Assembly: GCA_965262055.1 (NCBI GenBank) | Contig: CBDHEI010000002.1 | Coordinates: 3,348,347-3,412,346 of the forward strand | Origin: Dehalococcoidia bacterium | Lineage (GTDB): Bacteria; Chloroflexota; Dehalococcoidia; Lucifugimonadales; G958296245 | DNA length: 64,000 nucleotides | Direction: 5' to 3' | Part shown: positions 435 through 51,599 of the stretch, piece by piece | Position numbering within the stretch: position 1 is the stretch's first letter | Layout of the letters: each line of letters opens with the position of its first letter | Made by a program: the position numbers and the translations under genes | The notes under the pieces: model-generated | Database searches by the model: none | The model's input: only the letters and a program-made list of their open reading frames with translations | Told to the model about the DNA's origin: nothing

Positions 435-1343
435 TCACTCTATCCGGGTCCGCGGGTCGAGAGCGTCCCGGAGGCCGTCGCCAACGAAGTTCACGGCTAT
501 TACCGTAATAGAGATGGCCACCCCTGGGGGGACCCATATCCACGGCAGCTCTTTGAGCACGTACAGCGACTGAGCGCCCGTGATCATGTTTCCCCACGTG
601 GGCGTAGGCATCCGCACGCCCAGCCCCAGGAAGCTCAGGGATGCCTCCGTAATGATGGCTCCGGCCACCGTCAGCATGCCCGCCACCGCGACGTAGCCCA
701 TGACGGTGGGAAGGATATGGACGAACATCAGACGCCCTTGGGTCGCGCCTACAGCGCGCGCGGCGGTCACGTAGTCCATCTGGCGCACGGAGAGCACCTG
801 TCCGCGAACGAGCCGGGCCTTACCGGTCCAGCCTAGGAAGCCTATTACTATCATCAGGTTGTAGATGCTTGGGCCGACCACCGAGACGAGTATGATCAAC
901 GCGAAGAAGGATGGGAAGGTCATGACCAGCTCGGTGAAGCGCTGGAGCAGGTTGTCTACCCATCCGCCTATGTATCCCGATACGAGCCCTATGACGGCGC
1001 CGATGAGCGAGGCGATGAGGGCGGCGACAATGCCCACGCTCATGGAGACGCGGCCGCCGTAGAGGAGCCTCGCGAAGACATCCCGCCCGGCATCGTCATT
1101 GCCGAGGATGTGGTCCCATGTGGGGGCAGCTCTATATAGGTCCAGGTCCGTGTGATAGGGGTGGTGCCAGGCAATCAATGGCGCAAAGATGACCAGGATG
1201 CCGAAGACGGCCAGTATTGCGAGACCCAGGATCGCCATGTGGTGTCGCCGGAAGCGCCGCCAAGCGGTCTGCTGCGATTTTCGCGCGGGGCCCTCTGCCA
1301 GCGGAGCGGCTAGTTCTTGCCTGGCCTCATCGCTAGTCGCCAT
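435..1343 (-). CDS. ABC transporter permease, peptide/nickel type (DppC/OppC-like)
   Basis: 302-aa ORF. It has an N-terminal OppC-type segment, multiple TM helices, and the typical C-terminal motif VNFVGDGLRDALDPR of binding-protein-dependent transport family 5 permeases. Confidence 0.9.
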   Translation of the reverse strand: MATSDEARQELAAPLAEGPARKSQQTAWRRFRRHHMAILGLAILAVFGILVIFAPLIAWHHPYHTDLDLYRAAPTWDHILGNDDAGRDVFARLLYGGRVSMSVGIVAALIASLIGAVIGLVSGYIGGWVDNLLQRFTELVMTFPSFFALIILVSVVGPSIYNLMIVIGFLGWTGKARLVRGQVLSVRQMDYVTAARAVGATQGRLMFVHILPTVMGYVAVAGMLTVAGAIITEASLSFLGLGVRMPTPTWGNMITGAQSLYVLKELPWIWVPPGVAISITVIAVNFVGDGLRDALDPRTRIE

Positions 1344-45946: not shown

Positions 45947-46774
45947 ATGGCCCACGGCATGTACAAGCTGGTCGCACTGGACGTCGACGGCACCATACGA
46001 ACGATTGAGCGCTCGCCCTCCGAGCGTACGCGGCGGGCAGTAGACGCCGTCCGGGCCGCCGGCGCAGCGGTCACTCTGGCCACCGGCAGGATATTCGCGT
46101 CCGCCGCCTCTGCGGCGGCCGAGCTTGGCATCGCGACTCCCATCGTCACTTTCCAGGGCGCCGTCGTCGCAGAGCCTGAGAGCGGTGACGTGCTATGGCG
46201 CCGCACCCTGACGGCCGAAATGGCGAATGCGGCGCTCGACGCCCTGAGCGAGTGGCCGACCGAGGTGGCCGCCTACCTCGGTAACAATGTCTACGTGAAC
46301 ATGAACACCCCTTGGGCCGATGGCTACGCCGAGCGGAATCCGGGGCTCGTGCACGTCGTCGACGACCTCAGGGAGATGGCCGAGATGTCCCTCTGCAGGC
46401 TGGTCGCCGTTGGAGACGAGGACGACGTGGCAAGGCTCCACTCGGACCTGATGGCGATATTCGACTCGACGCTGCACATTACCCGCTCCCTGCCCCGGTT
46501 CTGCGAGATACTCCACCCGGAGGGAGGCAAGCATAAGGCCCTAGGCTGGCTGAGCAGCCACCTTGGAATCGAGCGAGAGGAGACCATCGCCTTCGGGAAC
46601 GGCTACAACGACGTGCACATGCTGGAGTGGGCAGGCCTTGGGGTAGCCGTGGACGGGGCCGTAGACGAGGTGCTGGAGGTGGCCGACCGCGTCGCCCCCA
46701 CCTTCGAAGAGGACGGCGTCGCGCAGGTGCTGGAGGAGTTGCTGGCCGCCGGCCAGATCGGAGGTGTCGGCTAG
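45947..46774 (+). CDS. Cof-type HAD-IIB family hydrolase
   Basis: 275-aa ORF. LVALDVDGT motif I, TLATGR motif II, GNGYNDVHM motif IV. Confidence 0.85.
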   Translation: MAHGMYKLVALDVDGTIRTIERSPSERTRRAVDAVRAAGAAVTLATGRIFASAASAAAELGIATPIVTFQGAVVAEPESGDVLWRRTLTAEMANAALDALSEWPTEVAAYLGNNVYVNMNTPWADGYAERNPGLVHVVDDLREMAEMSLCRLVAVGDEDDVARLHSDLMAIFDSTLHITRSLPRFCEILHPEGGKHKALGWLSSHLGIEREETIAFGNGYNDVHMLEWAGLGVAVDGAVDEVLEVADRVAPTFEEDGVAQVLEELLAAGQIGGVG

Positions 46775-47066
46775 GGCGCTCGGCCCGGCCTTCGTCAGAA
46801 TCACGAATGAGTATCTGTGCGAGATCCAAGCGACCGAAGCCAAGGCGCGCCTCGCCGAGCTCCTGAGGAACGTGGAGCACGGCGAGACCATCGCCATCAC
46901 TCGCCATGGAAAGATCGTCGCCCACCTAGTCCCCGCCAGCGCACACGACCGAGCCCAACGAAGAGAGGCTATAGAGCAGTTCCGCCAGCGTCGCGCAGGC
47001 TGGAAGCGCGTTGAGGTCTCCACCGACGAGATACTGGCCTGGCGCCATAAGGGGCACCGCCTGTGA
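46764..47066 (+). CDS. Type II antitoxin, Phd/YefM family
   Basis: IQATEAKARLAELLRNVEHGETIAITRHGKIVAHLVP is a classic Phd/YefM N-terminal domain. The stop TGA overlaps the GTG of the downstream PIN gene (GTGA). The true start within 46764-46830 is uncertain, as there is no in-frame ATG. Confidence 0.75.
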   Translation: MSARALGPAFVRITNEYLCEIQATEAKARLAELLRNVEHGETIAITRHGKIVAHLVPASAHDRAQRREAIEQFRQRRAGWKRVEVSTDEILAWRHKGHRL

Positions 47067-47502
47067 GCGGATGTGTTATCGATGCCTCGGTCGTCATTGC
47101 GTGCCTCTTCGATGACGAGGACGAGCCACGCGCAGGTATAGGGTGCTAGAGCACATCGAAGAGACCGGGGCGTTCGTCCCACCGCTTTGGCATCTGGAGA
47201 CACGCAACTCGTTGCTCACGGCCGAGAGGCGTGGCCGTCTCTCCAGAGCCCAGGTCGACGAGCACCTAGATGCCCTAAAGGGCTTACCCATCCAAACCGA
47301 TGAAGCCCCAGACCTCCAGGCGGCCTTCGATCTGGCAAGGGCCCATGGACTATCCTTCTACGACGCTCTCTACCTGGAACTGGCCAAGAGGCGCAATGCG
47401 CCTCTGGCCACGCTAGACGGAGGGCTGACCAAGGCCGCCATCACGGAGGGTCTAGGGGTCCCGGCCGCATATGGGGGCGACGCTAGCAGTACTGGGGAAT
47501 GA
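47063..47502 (+). pseudogene. vapC: VapC-type PIN-domain toxin, disrupted by a frameshift
   Basis: Frame A from GTG 47063 reads VSGCVIDASVVIACLFDDEDEPRAGIGC* (stop at 47147-47149). The rest of the PIN domain (LEHIEETGAFVPPLWHLETRNSLL...SFYDALYLELA...LATLD) lies in a different frame (47143-47502). A 1-nt indel near 47130-47142 would restore one ORF. Confidence 0.7.
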
Positions 47503-47756
47503 CGATGAGCCCGAGCACCCATGACGAGGTCCGGCTTGTGGTTGGCGGAACCTCATATGAGTTTGTGCTCGTGCCCGCCGGCACGTTCTTGAGGGGTACC
47601 AATGCGGAGCGGAGGCGTACCCTGACGGCCGAGATGTCAAACGCCGTGCTCGACGCCCTGAGCGAGAGGCCTACGGAGGTGGCCGCCTAGCTCGGCAATC
47701 ACGTGTACATGAACACCCCCTGGGCCGATGGCTACGCCGAGCGGAACCCGGGACTC
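47499..47756 (+). pseudogene. Mosaic of gene fragments: FGE/SUMF1-like N-terminal fragment fused to a degraded duplicate of the Cof-HAD gene segment
   Basis: EFVLVPAGTFLRGTN resembles formylglycine-generating-enzyme N-termini. 47612-47756 is a diverged copy of 46197-46348 (RRTLTAEM.NA.LDALSE.PTEVAAYLGN.VY.NTPWADGYAERNPGL), with TAC changed to a TAG stop and a 6-nt deletion. Confidence 0.6.
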
Positions 47757-47792
47757 CAATCCAACCATATGCCTGCAGCATGATCCAAGTGA

Positions 47793-49697
47793 ATGGTACA
47801 ATGCGAGTATGCGTCAGAATTGAAAAGCGAAGTTCTTATTGACACCCATGTGACTGTAATGACGAATTCGAAAATTGAGCCAGGGACAATCGTTAGGCAC
47901 GCCAGCTTCGGCGTCGGTAGAGTAACAGCACGGGACAATTCCGGCGGAATAACGGTTGACTTTAGGACCGGAGATAGTCGTCAGATGAGCGCCTCCGTGG
48001 CAGCCAACCTGATGGTCCTCCCTCACAACGGACTTGAAGCGCTGATTTGGAACGGACCGGAAAAAGTACGGTCTTGGGTCAATGGTGCGCCCCTCAAACT
48101 TCTTAGCGCAACTCTGATAGATACCGGCAATACGGCTAAGAATAGCGTAATCAAGGAGAAGTTTGAGGGTATAATCCTCGAGAATAATGTCAAATGGCTC
48201 CCCTGGTGGGAACGTGTAAGAACGGCGGCTGATGGTTCTATCCATTTCAAGACCGTCAAGAACAAGCGCAATGCAATCACCGGAATCACCCTTGCGCCCG
48301 GTGTAGACATCGACGATGTCCCCGAAGAACCCTTGCCAGAGAAACCGAAGGCGATCAGGTTCCCCCCAAAAAAATCAGCTTCAAAACGCGAGTGGAAGAA
48401 TTGGTTCCTGAGTGAGACGGAGGAACCAGCGCCGGGGCGTTGGCCGAATAGTAAGGTGTTCAGCGATCTCGGCAAATGGTCCGCCATGGAGGTCGAGCGG
48501 ACTCTGGTGCGAACGATACAGGCCGCTCGTGAGTTCCTAGCCTCAGGAAGCACACCTAAGAAGGCAGGCACGGCCTGGCTGAATGCGATGAGCCAAGTGT
48601 CCTTGACATGGCGCGAATTCATGGATCCCGATTGTAGTAACGATCTGGCTGTGCAGACCGGTGAACTACTTCCGAGGTTGGCTAAGACTTCTGAAGACAT
48701 GGATGGGTCAGCTCTTATATCAGGAGCCTTGGCAGGGCAACCGGACCAGTGGCGAATAGGATTCATGGCAGGGATATGGTCGTCCTTCCAAGACTCCAGC
48801 GAAACTGTCCGTGACCTCCTCAGGGCAGCACATTGGCAATTGGGACGACGGAAGCAGGCAGCCCTGATAGAAGAAGTCGCCATGGCCGCTTTAGGCGCAG
48901 TTGGTTCGGCCTACCAGATTGCCCAACTGGACAACCTGCTCGGCGTGTTACCTGACGACGAGCGAATTCGGGTCATGCACAGCCTGATCCTTCGCTCGGA
49001 GGCCGGGGATGTATCCAAAGAAAGAGTCATGGACTACGTTGTCGAGAGCCGCCACGCTGCCAAGTCCAACGATCAGAATGTTCGGTTATGCCTGTTGGTC
49101 CTGTCGGCTCTGTTGATTGCAGATGGCCCAAATCAGGTTGTCGACCAAGCCTCTACGGAATTAACGAATGTTCTCGCATCGCCGGAGCGGGACAAGACCT
49201 CGACTCACGCTCTCTTCCAGAAAATTCGGGTCCTCAACGAGAAACGGCTGAATGAGGTGCTCAGCTGCGAACGTCGGAAATACGAGGACCTGTCTAAGCG
49301 GGTACGTCTGGAGAAAGAACGCCTACATAGGCAAGCGGCAGACTTTAGCGCCCAAATGGCATCAGGACGTGAGGAATCCAGACTTGAGGTGCGCCAGGAT
49401 ATGCTTCTGGCTTTAGGTGATATTCTCCAGCGGGCTTACCGTCCTGGGAGGAGCTCGAAGGACAGGCTGCAAGATGTGATAGCGACTCTCCCTACTGCGT
49501 TGCAAGCCGGAGGGGCGGAGGCTTTGGGTACAGTCGGCGAAACCGTGCGATACGACCCGAGGTTGCACCATTCTACGGTGGTGATTCCCAGGGGAACCCA
49601 AGTGCTTTTGTCGGCGCCGGGCGTGGTAGTTCGCGGCAGAACGCTAGGTGACCGAGTGATCCTCAAGGCTAGCGTAATTCATGAGTCGGAGGTTTAG
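47793..49697 (+). CDS. Large hypothetical protein: SH3/Tudor (CarD-like) N-terminus, helical middle, coiled coil and GrpE-like C-terminal domain
   Basis: 634-aa ORF in the low-GC island. N-terminus IEPGTIVRHASFGVGRVTARD...VDF...MVLP. C-terminus has a coiled coil (NEKRLNEV...RLEKERLHRQ), then MLLALGDILQRA, then ALGTVGETVRYDPRLHHSTVV...PGVVVRGRTLGDRVILKASV, which parallels GrpE (LLPV.D.L.RA ... G..FDP..H.A ... GY.L.GR.LRPA.V.V). The start could instead be ATG 47859. Confidence 0.6.
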   Translation: MVQCEYASELKSEVLIDTHVTVMTNSKIEPGTIVRHASFGVGRVTARDNSGGITVDFRTGDSRQMSASVAANLMVLPHNGLEALIWNGPEKVRSWVNGAPLKLLSATLIDTGNTAKNSVIKEKFEGIILENNVKWLPWWERVRTAADGSIHFKTVKNKRNAITGITLAPGVDIDDVPEEPLPEKPKAIRFPPKKSASKREWKNWFLSETEEPAPGRWPNSKVFSDLGKWSAMEVERTLVRTIQAAREFLASGSTPKKAGTAWLNAMSQVSLTWREFMDPDCSNDLAVQTGELLPRLAKTSEDMDGSALISGALAGQPDQWRIGFMAGIWSSFQDSSETVRDLLRAAHWQLGRRKQAALIEEVAMAALGAVGSAYQIAQLDNLLGVLPDDERIRVMHSLILRSEAGDVSKERVMDYVVESRHAAKSNDQNVRLCLLVLSALLIADGPNQVVDQASTELTNVLASPERDKTSTHALFQKIRVLNEKRLNEVLSCERRKYEDLSKRVRLEKERLHRQAADFSAQMASGREESRLEVRQDMLLALGDILQRAYRPGRSSKDRLQDVIATLPTALQAGGAEALGTVGETVRYDPRLHHSTVVIPRGTQVLLSAPGVVVRGRTLGDRVILKASVIHESEV

Positions 49698-49700
49698 CTG

Positions 49701-51452
49701 ATGGAAATCGTCGGCATAGACTTTGGCACAACCAATGTTCGCGTTTCCACTTGGGATTCTGACGGAGGCCCTCCACCCGAGCCACAAGTCGTAGGCTCCG
49801 GAGGCACAACCACAATGCCCGCGGTAGTCGCCTTGCGACGCCAGCCAGGCGGCGAAGTCTCGGTTATTGTGGGTGAGGAAGCGGATTCCGAAATAGACGA
49901 TCCCAATGAAACCTTGGTAATTCGGAATATCAAACGATATGCTCTATCTGACGACGCCTACGTCAATTGGCATCTGGAGGCTAGGAATGCTCAGATGGAA
50001 TCCCCTAGGTGGCCGCCGACCTGGTGGGATCCCCAAAAGCGCTGTGTCCAGGCCTGGGGGCGAGAATTTCCTGTTTGGGATCTGATAGGTAGCATCCTGA
50101 AAGAGGCGCTTGATCGAGCCGATGTAGGCGAGGTATCCGAGTGGCGAGCAGGTTGTCCCGTGCATGCGAGTTTTGGCTACCGTGCAGAATTGACGCGGGT
50201 GCTGCATCAAATAACGGGCACAGGCAACGTCAATTGGGTTGTTGAGGAACCGATTCTGTTCTTGCTTCTTGTCGATCGTCTTGGCAGTCTGGGTGACTCA
50301 CCGCTTGAGGGTTCGTATCTCGTCTATGACCTCGGGGGTGGATCTTTCGACTGTGCGCTCGTAGAGTTTCGAGAAGGCAATTACCATATGAATGTCTACG
50401 GAGCTGAGGGCCATCCCTTGCTAGGAGGCTCTGACATTGACACCACCCTCATCGAAAAACTGGGTTATAATGGACAACCGGATTTGATACGGAAGGCCAA
50501 AGAGAGGCTCAACTCTGAGAATCCATCCGAGACTTTGGCCGACGGTACCGTTGTTACTCTTGACGATCTAGATTCCACATTGACGAGTGGCAGGTTCGTT
50601 GAGGAGTCTCTCAATAGTATGCGCGACGCGTACATTGGCGCGAAGCAGCTGTGGAAACGCAGCGATGGCAAAGATGACCCTCCCATTGGCGAGGTGATCA
50701 CCCGAGACAGCGAAACCAGTGCAGTGCGGTTCGTTTGGCAGTTAACCTGGGATGACTTGGCTAGAGATGTCGATGGAATCATTCTATTCGGTGGTCCCAC
50801 CAAGTCACAGCACTTCTCCCAACATCTGTCGAGGCAATTCGGAGCGCATAAGATAATGAACGCCTCAGAACTGCTTCCCCCGTTGACCGGGTTGGCCGAC
50901 TTGGAATTAGTCGGGATTAGCATGGGTGCCTGCTATAGCTATCAAACCTCCTTTTCGCCCATGTTTATCAATCGGCTGCCGGCACGGGTAACGTTGGCGA
51001 ACCTTCAATCGGGCGACTATGTAGAGTACGAGCCATTCGAGAATTTCGCTCCCACCTTCAATCCATTCTGTGACTTTGTTTCAGAAGAACTGCCACCACA
51101 ACCGCCTTTATACCGGTGCAGTACGTATGGCCAAACAATTCAGTTAACGATAACTCTTCCCAATGGTGAGGTCAAGTGTAGAACTTTTCTCGACAAGCAG
51201 ATAAACTCTGGTTTGATGGGATACACCTTGAAGCTAGTAATTGACCGATTCGGGAGGGTTGGTGTAGAACAGGCATCGGAAAAGATGGCCCCAAAGAGAT
51301 TTATGATCTTCAACAACCCACCATGGCAGACGGAAGGACAACTCAAGGCCCTTCAACGTCTGTTTAGCCAACAACAGAAATACGAAGAGCGCCAACGGGC
51401 CCAAGGAGCTTTCTACATCAACAAGCCTCCATGGGAATACCCGACCGCTTAG
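49701..51452 (+). CDS. Non-canonical Hsp70-like ATPase (actin/Hsp70 fold NBD with short lidless C-terminal beta region)
   Basis: 583-aa ORF. Motifs: GIDFGTTN (phosphate 1), DLGGGSFDCALV (phosphate 2), ILFGGPTKSQHFSQHL..FG (adenosine). GGAGG lies 8 nt upstream and the start is 3 nt after the upstream stop. The C-terminal ~180 aa is only weakly SBD-beta-like, and there is no helical lid or EEVD. Confidence 0.8.
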   Translation: MEIVGIDFGTTNVRVSTWDSDGGPPPEPQVVGSGGTTTMPAVVALRRQPGGEVSVIVGEEADSEIDDPNETLVIRNIKRYALSDDAYVNWHLEARNAQMESPRWPPTWWDPQKRCVQAWGREFPVWDLIGSILKEALDRADVGEVSEWRAGCPVHASFGYRAELTRVLHQITGTGNVNWVVEEPILFLLLVDRLGSLGDSPLEGSYLVYDLGGGSFDCALVEFREGNYHMNVYGAEGHPLLGGSDIDTTLIEKLGYNGQPDLIRKAKERLNSENPSETLADGTVVTLDDLDSTLTSGRFVEESLNSMRDAYIGAKQLWKRSDGKDDPPIGEVITRDSETSAVRFVWQLTWDDLARDVDGIILFGGPTKSQHFSQHLSRQFGAHKIMNASELLPPLTGLADLELVGISMGACYSYQTSFSPMFINRLPARVTLANLQSGDYVEYEPFENFAPTFNPFCDFVSEELPPQPPLYRCSTYGQTIQLTITLPNGEVKCRTFLDKQINSGLMGYTLKLVIDRFGRVGVEQASEKMAPKRFMIFNNPPWQTEGQLKALQRLFSQQQKYEERQRAQGAFYINKPPWEYPTA

Positions 51453-51599
51453 CTTATCTGCTTCACTGGAACCATCTGCCCGCACTCACGGCAGGGCTTA
51501 ACGCCACTGCAGTTCTCCTTGACCGTCAACCGCCACGCGCCACAGTCTTTGATGTTGGTTCATGTTGGCAATGGCCCTTCCATCGCCTCGAAGCAGCCC

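Follow-up and report, generated by a model that had tools for sequence, protein, structure and literature searches.

A low-GC two-gene cassette

The window, by which we mean the whole 64-kb stretch of DNA analysed, contains a plus-strand cassette in which a gene for a multi-domain protein (ORF1) is followed by one for a divergent Hsp70 (ORF2; Table 1). Direct reading agrees with the layout given in the first-pass annotation: the ORFs encode 634 and 583 aa, the ORF1 stop codon (TAG, 49695–49697) is followed by a 3-nt spacer, and GGAGG lies 8 nt upstream of the ORF2 ATG. Most related loci likewise have a GAGG-type motif and a stop codon that abuts or overlaps the next start codon. The two genes are translationally coupled. 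The probable ORF1 start is at 47859, since the annotated product (P0001, 100% identity to ORF1) is 612 aa long and alignments with relatives begin at M23, which corresponds to this position.

Table 1. Features of the cassette and its left-hand neighbourhood, in window coordinates; ORF1 residues follow the 634-aa numbering.
Feature	Coordinates	Strand	Evidence
Phd/YefM antitoxin (46764–47066) and PIN/VapC toxin (47143–47502)	46764..47502	+	Pfam, 4.5e-12 and 1.3e-9
Degenerate copy of upstream HAD-hydrolase gene segment, at left edge of island	47611..47756	+	Direct repeats
Low-GC, low-GC3 island with two-gene cassette	47754..51446	+	Composition; blastn block shared with L003
ORF1, longest ORF, 634 aa (probable form 47859..49697, 612 aa)	47793..49697	+	ORF listing
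ORF1 Tudor/SH3-like β-barrel of PcrA/UvrD/CarD-RID type, residues 30–66	47880..47990	+	Model, Foldseek, Pfam
ORF1 winged helix-turn-helix, residues 78–168	48024..48296	+	Model; PF27167 in relatives
ORF1 α-helical repeat, HEAT/VPS35-like, residues 198–462	48384..49178	+	Model
ORF1 long coiled-coil helix, residues 464–523	49182..49361	+	Model
ORF1 GrpE-like core, residues 520–634	49350..49694	+	hhalign, model
GGAGG ribosome-binding site within ORF1 3′-end	49688..49692	+	Direct sequence reading
ORF2, divergent Hsp70, 583 aa	49701..51452	+	ORF listing, Pfam, NCBIfam, AF2 model
ORF2 nucleotide-binding domain (NBD), residues 1–415	49701..50945	+	Profile, motif conservation
ORF2 linker and SBDβ-like β-sandwich, residues 416–540	50946..51320	+	Model, Foldseek
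ORF2 single C-terminal helix (545–573) and conserved PPW..P tail	51321..51449	+	Model, family consensus

The cassette lies in an island with a GC content of 0.53, compared with 0.64–0.65 in the flanks. The abrupt fall at ~47757 and recovery at ~51470 reported earlier are confirmed by a sliding-window profile, in which GC (300-nt windows) changes from 0.62–0.70 to 0.46–0.59 across ~47700 to 51500; at 1-kb resolution, the island is the lowest-GC stretch of the entire window. Codon usage follows the same pattern, with a GC3 of 0.60 in ORF1 and 0.55 in ORF2 versus 0.78–0.85 in four flanking metabolic genes. The composition and codon usage of the cassette are thus foreign to its host. The island edges were set by homology to a syntenic Dehalococcoidia MAG (L003; blastn block, 81.4% identity). 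In L003 the island occupies the same site and has equally low GC, and at the nucleotide level it is 81% identical to the copy in the window, little less than the flanks (84–87%), so the acquisition is not recent. The proposal of horizontal acquisition therefore stands as regards foreign composition and codon usage, but not as a recent event.

As had been noted, the island abuts gene fragments and a Phd/VapC module. The HAD segment copy forms a pair of direct repeats with its source (D1/D2, 46197–46348 and 47611–47756, 82–93% identity), and the repeated segment also matches the HAD gene of L003. The stretch 46763–47753 has no counterpart in L003. The Phd/VapC module is a neighbour rather than a part of the cassette, and is a later, lineage-specific insertion absent from L003. 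The other flanks of the cassette in the window are metabolic genes.

ORF2 is a divergent Hsp70

ORF2 gives the expected match to the Pfam HSP70 model (8.8e-11) and also matches an NCBIfam DnaK model (1.7e-14). It has more than 403 full-length relatives at 42–80% identity. Its AF2 model (pLDDT 87.5, pTM 0.89) retrieves two-domain DnaK chains as top Foldseek matches (3e-20), with alignments of 620–650 columns and with chains comprising NBD and substrate-binding domain (SBD) ranked above NBD-only chains. A profile comparison with the DnaK NBD matches positions 2–378 (E 3.6e-16). The three Hsp70/actin-fold nucleotide-binding motifs recognised in the first pass (DFGTTN, YDLGGGSFD, and LFGGPTKS) are invariant in 75 relatives, as are residues D7, G9, T10, N12, K78, E183, P184, D210, G212–G214, S215, D217, G364, and G365. 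With its ATPase motifs intact, ORF2 is predicted to be a catalytically competent Hsp70.

The profile search of ORF2 against DnaK found no sequence-level match for the SBD, and the resemblance to SBDβ, seen in the model as strands between residues 429 and 537, is structural only. A helix (545–573) and a low-confidence tail follow. W542 and Q543 are near-invariant among relatives, and a PW motif lies near the C-terminus of the family consensus. ORF2 had been described as lidless; in the model, however, the SBDβ-like β-sandwich is kept along with a single helix of the lid, so that the lid is a one-helix stub.

ORF1 joins putative targeting modules to a GrpE-like C-terminus

ORF1 belongs to a family that forms at least 346 clusters when grouped at 50% identity (E ≤ 1e-3). 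It comprises, in order, a PcrA/UvrD-type Tudor barrel, a winged helix-turn-helix, a HEAT-like repeat, a coiled coil, and a GrpE-like C-terminus. The large N-terminal region to which the GrpE-like domain had been said to be fused is indeed multi-domain in the AF2 model (pLDDT 74). The barrel (strands 33–65) resembles the C-terminal Tudor domain of UvrD (6yi2; Foldseek prob 1.00, TMt 0.60, E 0.065), and Pfam detects PcrA_UvrD_tudor in 8/75 relatives and CarD_TRCF_RID in 2/75 (best 4.2e-5). The winged helix-turn-helix (helices 81–148, hairpin 152–167) is a region found in 74/75 relatives; it probably corresponds to the segment covered by Pfam PF27167 (“HTH_GRAD”), which is precomputed on P0003–P0006 and on the upstream partners in loci L004, L005, L056, L059, and L061. 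The helical repeat has ~14 helices in the model. Its best Foldseek matches in the PDB, VPS35 and designed helical repeats, are not significant (E ~0.02–0.1), and a PDB profile search returned designed helical repeats (E 0.007–0.04).

The coiled coil is modelled as one 60-residue helix, on which coiled-coil Pfam noise matches fall in relatives, and is likely to correspond to the N-terminal dimerisation helix of GrpE. The core that follows has two bundle helices (527–548 and 555–572) and a C-terminal β-domain (strands 584–630), with the motifs YDPRLHH and GDRVILKA; the modelled topology of long helix, two helices, and β-domain is that of GrpE. Profile–profile comparison upholds the GrpE pattern proposed earlier for this region. 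An alignment of 75 ORF1 C-termini matches GrpE over 93 columns (hhalign Prob 95.9%, E 6.1e-9), spanning residues 78–182 of E. coli GrpE with the FDPxxH motif aligned, compared with 0.1–0.5% for reversed and mid-region controls; a 13-member version gives 88.9% (E 2.4e-6). In single-sequence searches, Pfam GrpE matches 2/75 relatives (best 3.2e-5), but ORF1 itself falls below the Pfam threshold and scores E 0.02–0.09 in profile-against-sequence searches, including 0.02–0.03 for NCBIfam GrpE models. The top PDB sequence match is M. tuberculosis GrpE (8gb3_E, E 0.05). At ~14–19% identity over aligned columns, the ORF1 C-terminus is homologous to GrpE but lies at the edge of what sequence searches can detect. 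FDPxxH and the terminal β-strands rank with the most conserved positions in the family.

Conservation of the pair

The co-conservation anticipated by the first-pass annotation is complete among the loci examined: ORF1-like and ORF2-like genes are adjacent in 19/19, with a partner bearing a GrpE-like C-terminus directly upstream of every ORF2-like gene, even where the Hsp70 is only 26% identical. The two families are of comparable size (346 clusters at 50% identity for ORF1; more than 403 at 90% for ORF2). The neighbourhoods of these loci contain no J-protein, GTPase, or effector linked to the pair, nor does any other gene accompany it consistently. The pair is therefore self-contained and lies outside any dnaK-dnaJ-grpE locus, as had been supposed; true grpE–dnaK loci from the same searches (e.g., L027, L041) are entirely different from the cassette.

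Comparison with known systems

No description of a conserved Hsp70/GrpE-fusion pair was found in the searchable literature. As in DnaK–GrpE(–DnaJ), an Hsp70 whose phosphate-1, phosphate-2, and adenosine motifs are intact accompanies a GrpE-fold partner, the genes lie side by side and are co-translated, and ORF1 has the long helix, bundle helices, and C-terminal β-domain with FDPxxH of canonical GrpE. Canonical GrpE, however, has ~200 aa, whereas the GrpE-like domain forms the last ~115 residues of the 612-aa ORF1. Unlike DnaK, to which its sequence is 15–18% identical, ORF2 has a one-helix lid and an SBD recognisable by structure only, and the cassette lacks a linked J-protein.

PcrA, UvrD, Mfd, and CarD hold RNA polymerase via a barrel of the type found in ORF1. 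Like the PcrA/UvrD Tudor domain and the CarD/Mfd RNA-polymerase-interacting domain, the ORF1 N-terminus is a small β-barrel with a G-x-V-x-H-x-x-F-G-x-G-x-V pattern, but it is apparently carried by a GrpE-like co-chaperone rather than by a helicase, translocase, or transcription factor. Eukaryotic BAG-domain proteins are modular exchange factors that link Hsp70 to specific targets. ORF1 would resemble them in combining an exchange domain with domains for targeting or sorting, which would let the co-chaperone determine where its Hsp70 acts; the BAG domain is a three-helix bundle whereas the cassette's exchange domain would have the GrpE fold, and the likeness would be functional only, with no homology.

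GAP1-N2 GTPase-centric systems, for which a role in biological conflict is predicted, also contain HSP70 and GrpE modules outside the housekeeping operon, and some of their Hsp70s have no peptide-binding domain (Kaur, Burroughs, Iyer, Aravind 2020, PMC7159879). Their defining components are the GAP1-N2 GTPase and an FNIII-repeat protein that carries a DnaJ or TPR fusion; neither occurs in the Pfam-annotated neighbourhoods or among the identified flanking genes of the window. The GrpE of these systems is presented as an exchange factor in its own right, and a fusion such as ORF1 is not mentioned (PMC7159879). The CoCoNuT proteins CnuD/CnuCD likewise combine an Hsp70-like NBD/SBD with HEAT-like repeats in a setting other than a chaperone operon (Bell et al. 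2024, PMC11090510). They are linked to McrB-type GTPases and to McrC, with degenerate ATPase motifs (PMC11090510), whereas the ORF2 motifs are invariant, McrBC is absent, and the helical repeat resides on the GrpE-like partner rather than on the Hsp70.

Proposed function

The cassette is probably, though by no means securely, a self-contained and specialised module for Hsp70-driven remodelling, in which the exchange factor also serves as targeting adaptor, with RNA polymerase as a possible target. ORF1 would be the dedicated nucleotide-exchange factor and targeting adaptor of ORF2. It may dimerise through its long coiled coil, as GrpE does, while its bundle helices and β-domain would contact the NBD of ORF2 and release ADP. 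The Tudor barrel, winged helix-turn-helix, and HEAT-like repeat would recognise a particular target, either cellular or invading, and deliver the ATPase there. Because the barrel is of the type that holds RNA polymerase, this enzyme or a nucleic-acid-bound complex is the leading candidate target; the barrel is present in 42/75 relatives and missing from 33/75 (44%), so RNA polymerase targeting would not be the universal mode. Cycles of ATP hydrolysis and ORF1-driven exchange could then remodel or dislodge the target. Since no J-protein is linked, J-domain stimulation may be supplied by the DnaJ of the host, or delivery by ORF1 may take its place.

It is possible, if doubtful, that the pair is instead a housekeeping paralogue maintained within lineages, along the lines of HscA/HscB or HscC/DjlC, with no conflict role. 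It would be a chaperone dedicated to a single endogenous client or process, for example the maintenance of transcription complexes, and its odd composition a relic of an old transfer. Three syntenic contexts, largely metabolic, recur and together account for at least 11 loci: GFO_IDH-Peptidase_S26 / FAS1_DH-DUF192-PfkB in five loci, TPP-enzyme-MerR / DLH in four, and HAD / E1-beta in the window and L003. Despite its odd GC, the pair is syntenic within several lineages and has therefore been kept vertically there. These stable positions agree with a housekeeping role, as do the near-flank divergence from L003 and the strictly conserved catalytic residues. Many bacteria carry additional DnaK-derived paralogues of unknown role (PMC13580251). 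Against such a role, GC3 has not ameliorated despite long residence, and integration debris and defence genes accumulate beside the pair. Moreover, the GC of the pair (0.44–0.59) is discordant in both directions with that of very different hosts (0.40–0.68), and this decoupling favours repeated transfer.

That same discordance would suit an anti-phage or other conflict system, which we regard as rather unlikely; here ORF1 would sense either the invader itself or a host complex that the invader has modified, such as hijacked RNA polymerase, and the Hsp70 ATPase would act as effector or switch, with the target sequestered or dismantled, or the cell arrested. Known defence systems lie 0.5–5 kb from the pair in 4/19 loci (raw count): HEC-09 (9e-87), dCTPase (1.6e-89), and a type II MTase in L010, a type IIG RM system (6e-207) in L006, NsnA/NsnB in L004, and RE_XcyI with an MTase in L061. 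Toxin–antitoxin or transposase genes occur near several other loci, and Hsp70/GrpE components have precedent in predicted conflict systems (PMC7159879; PMC11090510). The remaining annotated neighbours are mostly metabolic genes, PADLOC models match neither protein, neither these nor their longer relatives carry a recognisable toxic effector domain, and homologues were not found on plasmids, phages, or viral contigs. In at least three lineages the pair has stayed at fixed syntenic sites amid metabolic genes over deep divergence, which is untypical of fast-turnover defence genes. The defence-island context first proposed is thus weakly supported by these four loci; against it stand the largely metabolic settings, the PADLOC result, and the window's own VapBC as a later insertion.

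It is improbable that the ORF1 C-terminus has the GrpE fold but no exchange activity and instead serves as an inhibitor or scaffold that tethers ORF2 or locks it in a single nucleotide state, the ATPase firing only once a signal displaces ORF1, for although the great divergence from canonical GrpE favours this reading and the regulatory-looking N-terminal region would suit a gated switch, the conservation of FDPxxH and the terminal β-strands speaks against it and 1:1 translational coupling fits a constitutive co-chaperone equally well.

If the remodelling module with its built-in targeting adaptor is the correct reading, the pair would be a bacterial counterpart of the modular Hsp70 co-chaperones of eukaryotes.

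A two-gene cassette conserved as a unit

The low-GC island is occupied by two plus-strand genes, ORF1 and ORF2, at the places claimed for them in the first-pass annotation (Table), the second encoding a divergent Hsp70 of 583 aa. They are indeed separated by a 3-nt spacer after the ORF1 stop codon, and a GGAGG motif stands 8 nt before the ATG of ORF2. The protein in the database that matches ORF1 exactly has 612 residues, and the alignment of its relatives begins at M23, so position 47859 is, on this sequence comparison, the likelier start; residue numbers below follow the 634-aa version. A pseudogene or artefact was rejected: neither ORF is broken, and each is conserved and gives a confident model. 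Scanned for promoters and terminators, the island had counts no higher than those expected from shuffling.

In all 19 loci compared (the window, L001–L011, L056–L061 and L012), the ORF2-family gene is immediately preceded, on its own strand, by an ORF whose C-terminus is GrpE-like. An HMM of this C-terminus matches the partners at E 4e-28 or better in all but L012. The divergent L012 pair has the same layout: a 684-aa partner with a PcrA/UvrD-type Tudor match (5e-4), a coiled coil and a GrpE-like C-terminus (C-terminal HMM 1e-7) precedes an Hsp70 with 26% identity to ORF2 and a closer likeness to DnaK (Pfam 1.2e-23). This pair is possibly an evolutionary intermediate. In nearly every locus the stop codon of the first gene touches or overlaps the start codon of the second, and a GAGG often falls within the 3' end of the former. 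The close spacing from which probable co-translation was proposed on the single sequence recurs in other genomes. As also anticipated, the pair is separate from dnaK-dnaJ-grpE loci: an ordinary dnaK operon was rejected because the true grpE-dnaK loci recovered by the same searches are distinct. No third gene (J-protein, GTPase, nuclease or protease) travels with the pair in the Pfam-annotated neighbourhoods, and no fused effector domain was found in longer relatives of either protein.

Exhaustive HMMER searching returned 346 clusters at 50% identity for ORF1 (E<=1e-3), 125 of them at E<=1e-30, and the family size is taken as at least 346; the ORF2 family comprises more than 403 clusters at 90% identity. 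The full size emerged only from the exhaustive search, since a word-indexed ORF1 search gave six relatives and a 15-sequence profile the same six. A scan of genome contigs with the single ORF2 protein gave one locus, that of a Dehalococcoidia metagenome-assembled genome (MAG).

One syntenic lineage (L001, L057, L058 and L060) always has a Peptidase_S26 (signal-peptidase-like) gene immediately upstream of the partner, on the same strand. The partner in L058 is split into ORFs of 232 and 497 aa, and that in L001 is without the Tudor and HTH regions (442-460 aa).

Table. Positions of the cassette, its neighbours and predicted protein domains, with domain occupancy among ORF1 relatives
Feature	Sequence	Position	Relatives (of 75)	Basis or remark
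Internal HAD-gene segment	window	46197-46348		source of degenerate duplicate
Phd/YefM-PIN(VapC) and fragments	window	46763-47753		~1 kb, absent from L003
Short ORF	window	47499-47690		region 47499-47610 noted
Degenerate HAD-hydrolase copy	window	47611-47756		146 nt
ORF1	window (+)	47793-49697		TAG at 49695-49697
GGAGG motif	window (+)	49688-49692
ORF2	window (+)	49701-51452
Small β-barrel (Tudor-like)	ORF1	residues 33-65	42	model
Winged helix-turn-helix	ORF1	residues 81-167	74	model
Low-confidence linker	ORF1	residues 184-192		model, pLDDT below 50
α-Helical repeat	ORF1	residues 198-462	75	model
Single 60-residue helix	ORF1	residues 464-523		model
Two helices, then β-domain	ORF1	residues 527-572, 584-630		model
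Coiled coil	ORF1		74
GrpE-like domain	ORF1		74
β-Sandwich	ORF2	residues 429-537		model
Single C-terminal helix	ORF2	residues 545-573		model
Divergent partner	L012	368-2419		684 aa
Divergent Hsp70	L012	2437-3858
Defence genes	L010	934-1566, 7394-8698, 9510-10517		clear defence island around pair
RE_XcyI, methylase, AHJR-like, RusA	L061	12789-16230		slot cargo
DDE transposase	L056	15590-16850		slot cargo
Nucleotidyltransferase-type small gene pair	L059	13555-13957		slot cargo

ORF2 is a divergent Hsp70 with a reduced lid

ORF2 matches the Pfam HSP70 family, as expected (PF00012, 8.8e-11, over the gathering score), and its family profile matches the DnaK nucleotide-binding domain (NBD) over positions 2-378 (3.6e-16). 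The nucleotide-binding motifs of the Hsp70/actin fold, three of which had been recognised by eye, proved invariant across 75 relatives of 46-80% identity: DxGTTN (D7/T10/N12), the catalytic lysine (K78), Glu-Pro (E183/P184), DxGGGSFD (D210/G212-214/D217) and GGxT (G364/G365). By sequence, ORF2 is an Hsp70 with all the residues that define an active ATPase in place.

The AlphaFold2 model of ORF2 (pLDDT 87.5, pTM 0.89) places the NBD first, followed by a β-sandwich and a single helix. The substrate-binding domain (SBD) gave no sequence-level match in the DnaK profile search. Because this β-sandwich is present in the model, and because the top PDB matches in Foldseek are two-domain DnaK chains (3e-20, 620-650 aligned columns) that outrank NBD-only chains, ORF2 is predicted to retain an SBDβ-like clamp, with only the lid reduced. 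The full SBD-alpha lid of about 100 residues is missing from the model. The description of ORF2 as lidless was thus nearly right, one helix being kept, but the loss of the SBD had been overstated. No DnaJ Pfam match was found in any annotated neighbourhood of the pair, and a host DnaJ may act on ORF2 in trans.

The C-terminus of ORF1 as a GrpE homologue

Direct sequence support for GrpE in ORF1 is weak, though all in one direction. ORF1 has no match to PF01025 (GrpE), which matches only 2 of 75 relatives (best 3.2e-5). Three NCBIfam GrpE models reach E 0.02-0.03 over the right part of the profile, with 14 bits against cut-offs of 167-233, and the best PDB sequence match is the GrpE of M. tuberculosis (E 0.05). 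A PDB profile search with full-length ORF1 left GrpE at E 0.088 because noise from the helical repeat and coiled coil dominated the profile.

The assignment was settled by comparing two profiles. One was built from the C-terminal 170 residues of 75 ORF1-family members. The other came from authentic GrpE proteins of the true grpE-dnaK loci together with E. coli GrpE, a sequence validated by full-length tblastn matches of 31-39% to those grpE genes. In hhalign the two align with 95.9% probability (E 6.1e-9) over 93 columns that correspond to residues 78-182 of E. coli GrpE, and the FDPxxH motifs coincide; with a family alignment of 13 sequences the value was 88.9% (E 2.4e-6). Three controls stayed at 0.1-0.5%: one reversed the template, one reversed the query, and one used the 170 family residues that come before the C-terminal segment. 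The ORF1 model (pLDDT 74, from a six-sequence alignment) ends in elements with GrpE topology, and in this monomer model the 60-residue helix precedes the GrpE-like core as the GrpE dimerisation helix would. On the profile evidence, the C-terminus is accordingly assigned as a homologue of the GrpE core, comprising bundle helices, β-domain and FDPxxH. The GrpE domain anticipated here was therefore recovered, although not by PF01025 itself, and the proposed architecture of an Hsp70 with a large GrpE-fusion partner was largely right.

Domains in the N-terminal half of ORF1

The three further domains of ORF1 belong to classes known for binding proteins or nucleic acids. With Foldseek, the barrel matches the C-terminal Tudor domain of UvrD (6yi2) with a probability of 1.00 and a TMt of 0.60, but at E 0.065. 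Among 75 relatives, PF21196 (PcrA_UvrD_tudor) matches eight of the more distant ones (best 23.8 bits, cut-off 23.9) and PF02559 (CarD_TRCF_RID) matches two, while ORF1 itself falls beneath the Pfam reporting level for both. The whole ORF1 model gave nothing significant in Foldseek, and GrpE was not among the top 50. Since 44% of the sampled relatives are without the barrel, the common function must rest on the winged HTH and the helical repeat.

PF27167 ('HTH_GRAD') is precomputed on four ORF1-family database proteins (P0003-P0006) and on the partners in L004, L005, L056, L059 and L061, and the winged HTH segment of ORF1 is taken to be the region that it covers in these relatives. The literature searched holds no explanation of 'GRAD' or 'HTH_GRAD'. 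PF27167 is a recent Pfam family that may hold prior knowledge about the ORF1 family; one domain is already catalogued, and this unexplained name is the sole prior trace of the family met in the literature and databases searched.

Origin and genomic context

In 300-nt windows, GC content is 0.46-0.59 between about 47700 and 51500, down from 0.62-0.70, and the island is the minimum-GC stretch of the whole 64-kb window at 1-kb resolution. GC3 is 0.60 in ORF1 and 0.55 in ORF2, against 0.78-0.85 in four flanking metabolic genes, and GC2 is similar in all of these; the drop reflects codon usage, and amino-acid content is no explanation for it. Both profiles uphold the abrupt discontinuity first described from hand counts. 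Across 11 loci the GC of the pair spans 0.44-0.59 and that of the host flanks 0.38-0.69, the pair lying beneath the host in high-GC genomes and over it in low-GC genomes. Such decoupling from the hosts is the signature of a gene set moving between hosts and, with the GC3 gap, leaves the earlier proposal of a foreign origin largely right.

The closest relative is found in the syntenic Dehalococcoidia MAG OY760867.2 (L003), with an ORF2 80% identical. Its island lies at the same site, between HAD and E1-β genes, with a GC of 0.53 vs 0.68. At the nucleotide level the two islands are 81% identical and their flanks 84-87%. Because site, low GC and near-flank identity are shared, the island is older than the split of the two genomes. 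The stretch between the HAD-hydrolase gene and the island holds the Phd/YefM and PIN/VapC genes and the gene fragments that had been noted upstream; it is missing as a whole from L003 and is therefore a later, lineage-specific insertion. The fragment abutting the left edge of the island is a degenerate duplicate of an internal HAD-gene segment (82-93% identity). A short ORF beside it, without a Pfam match, opens with the peptide VLVPAGTFLRGTN, which presumably resembles the start of formylglycine-generating-enzyme/sulfatase-modifying domains.

The pair recurs in three syntenic contexts (five loci, four loci, and the window with L003), and the Hsp70s of the five-locus context are only 46-61% identical to ORF2. 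Known defence systems lie close to it in four loci. In the metagenomic locus L010, the pair is flanked upstream, at 0.5 kb, by a HEC-09 candidate (NYN domain, 9e-87) and downstream by a kinase-deaminase dCTP-depleting defence protein (dCTP deaminase, 1.6e-89) and a type II methyltransferase. The others are L006 (a type IIG restriction-modification enzyme), L004 (NsnAB) and L061 (RE_XcyI and a methylase). Several further loci have toxin-antitoxin or transposase genes nearby. PADLOC-DB 2.0 returned no family for ORF1 or ORF2 at E<=1, and searches of plasmids, phages and IMG/VR found no homologue on a plasmid, phage or viral contig. A typical defence-island context had thus been overstated, and a defence role is no more than suggested.

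In the TPP-enzyme/DLH context, a slot bounded by the DLH and Peptidase_C1 genes follows the pair directly. Its mobile cargo differs from genome to genome (Table), and it looks like an integration hotspot.

Relation to known systems

HSP70/GrpE-containing GAP1-N2 GTPase systems have been described (PMC7159879), but membership was rejected as no GTPase, fn3-DnaJ or TPR gene adjoins the pair in the window or the annotated loci; an fn3 gene in L057 is 9 kb off on the opposite strand. CoCoNuT systems include Hsp70-like and HEAT proteins (PMC11090510), and were likewise rejected, there being no McrB-type GTPase or McrC (DUF2357) in any neighbourhood examined. A 2026 review notes DnaK-derived paralogues of unknown function in many bacteria, and the passages of it that a term search brought up make no mention of the pair (PMC13580251). 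Nor is the pair described in the literature searched on Hsp70/GrpE in conflict, GRAD and Tudor/PcrA/CarD.

DnaK-GrpE is the system to which the pair is likened in its working, yet both proteins depart from the norm of their families: ORF1 scores under the curated GrpE cut-offs and is three times as large as usual, and ORF2 differs from DnaK in having its lid cut to one helix and no linked J-partner. Eukaryotic BAG-type exchange factors are closest in logic, although their fold is unrelated.

A putative targeting exchange factor

ORF1 would dimerise in the manner of GrpE and open the nucleotide cleft of ORF2, releasing ADP; the strict adjacency and translational coupling with the Hsp70 gene (19/19 loci) indirectly support such an exchange partnership. 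Its N-terminal half would pick the target and deliver the ATPase there, and cycles of ATP hydrolysis and exchange would then remodel or displace it. The conserved PPW..P tail of ORF2 might, speculatively, dock on the helical repeat of ORF1, by analogy with EEVD-TPR docking.

Barrels of the Tudor/RID type, which that of ORF1 resembles, are how PcrA, UvrD, Mfd and CarD hold RNA polymerase, and DnaK is able to reactivate RNA polymerase. On these grounds, and by analogy, RNA polymerase is the leading candidate for the putative target of ORF1. It is conceivable, though improbable, that the pair is a surveillance system for the transcription machinery, in which a Tudor and winged HTH exchange factor brings a minimal Hsp70 to evict or disable stalled or phage-hijacked polymerase. 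If so, the Hsp70 would drive a mobile module for defence or quality control directed at transcription, and ORF1 would be the first bacterial exchange factor to double as a targeting adaptor.

Bacterial Hsp70 is usually taught as DnaK with a small, single-purpose GrpE, client choice being left to J-proteins. The cassette would add a different scheme, associated until now with the BAG-type co-chaperones of eukaryotes: here the targeting domains are borne by the exchange factor. The Tudor-like domain gives it a concrete candidate target in RNA polymerase. The family is no one-off, with its hundreds of clusters, hosts that range in GC from 0.40 to 0.68 and a gene pairing invariant in all loci examined. 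Its foreign composition, defence neighbours and long synteny make it a useful case for the recruitment of chaperones to conflict or surveillance, in a family that is widespread, cleanly defined and experimentally accessible.
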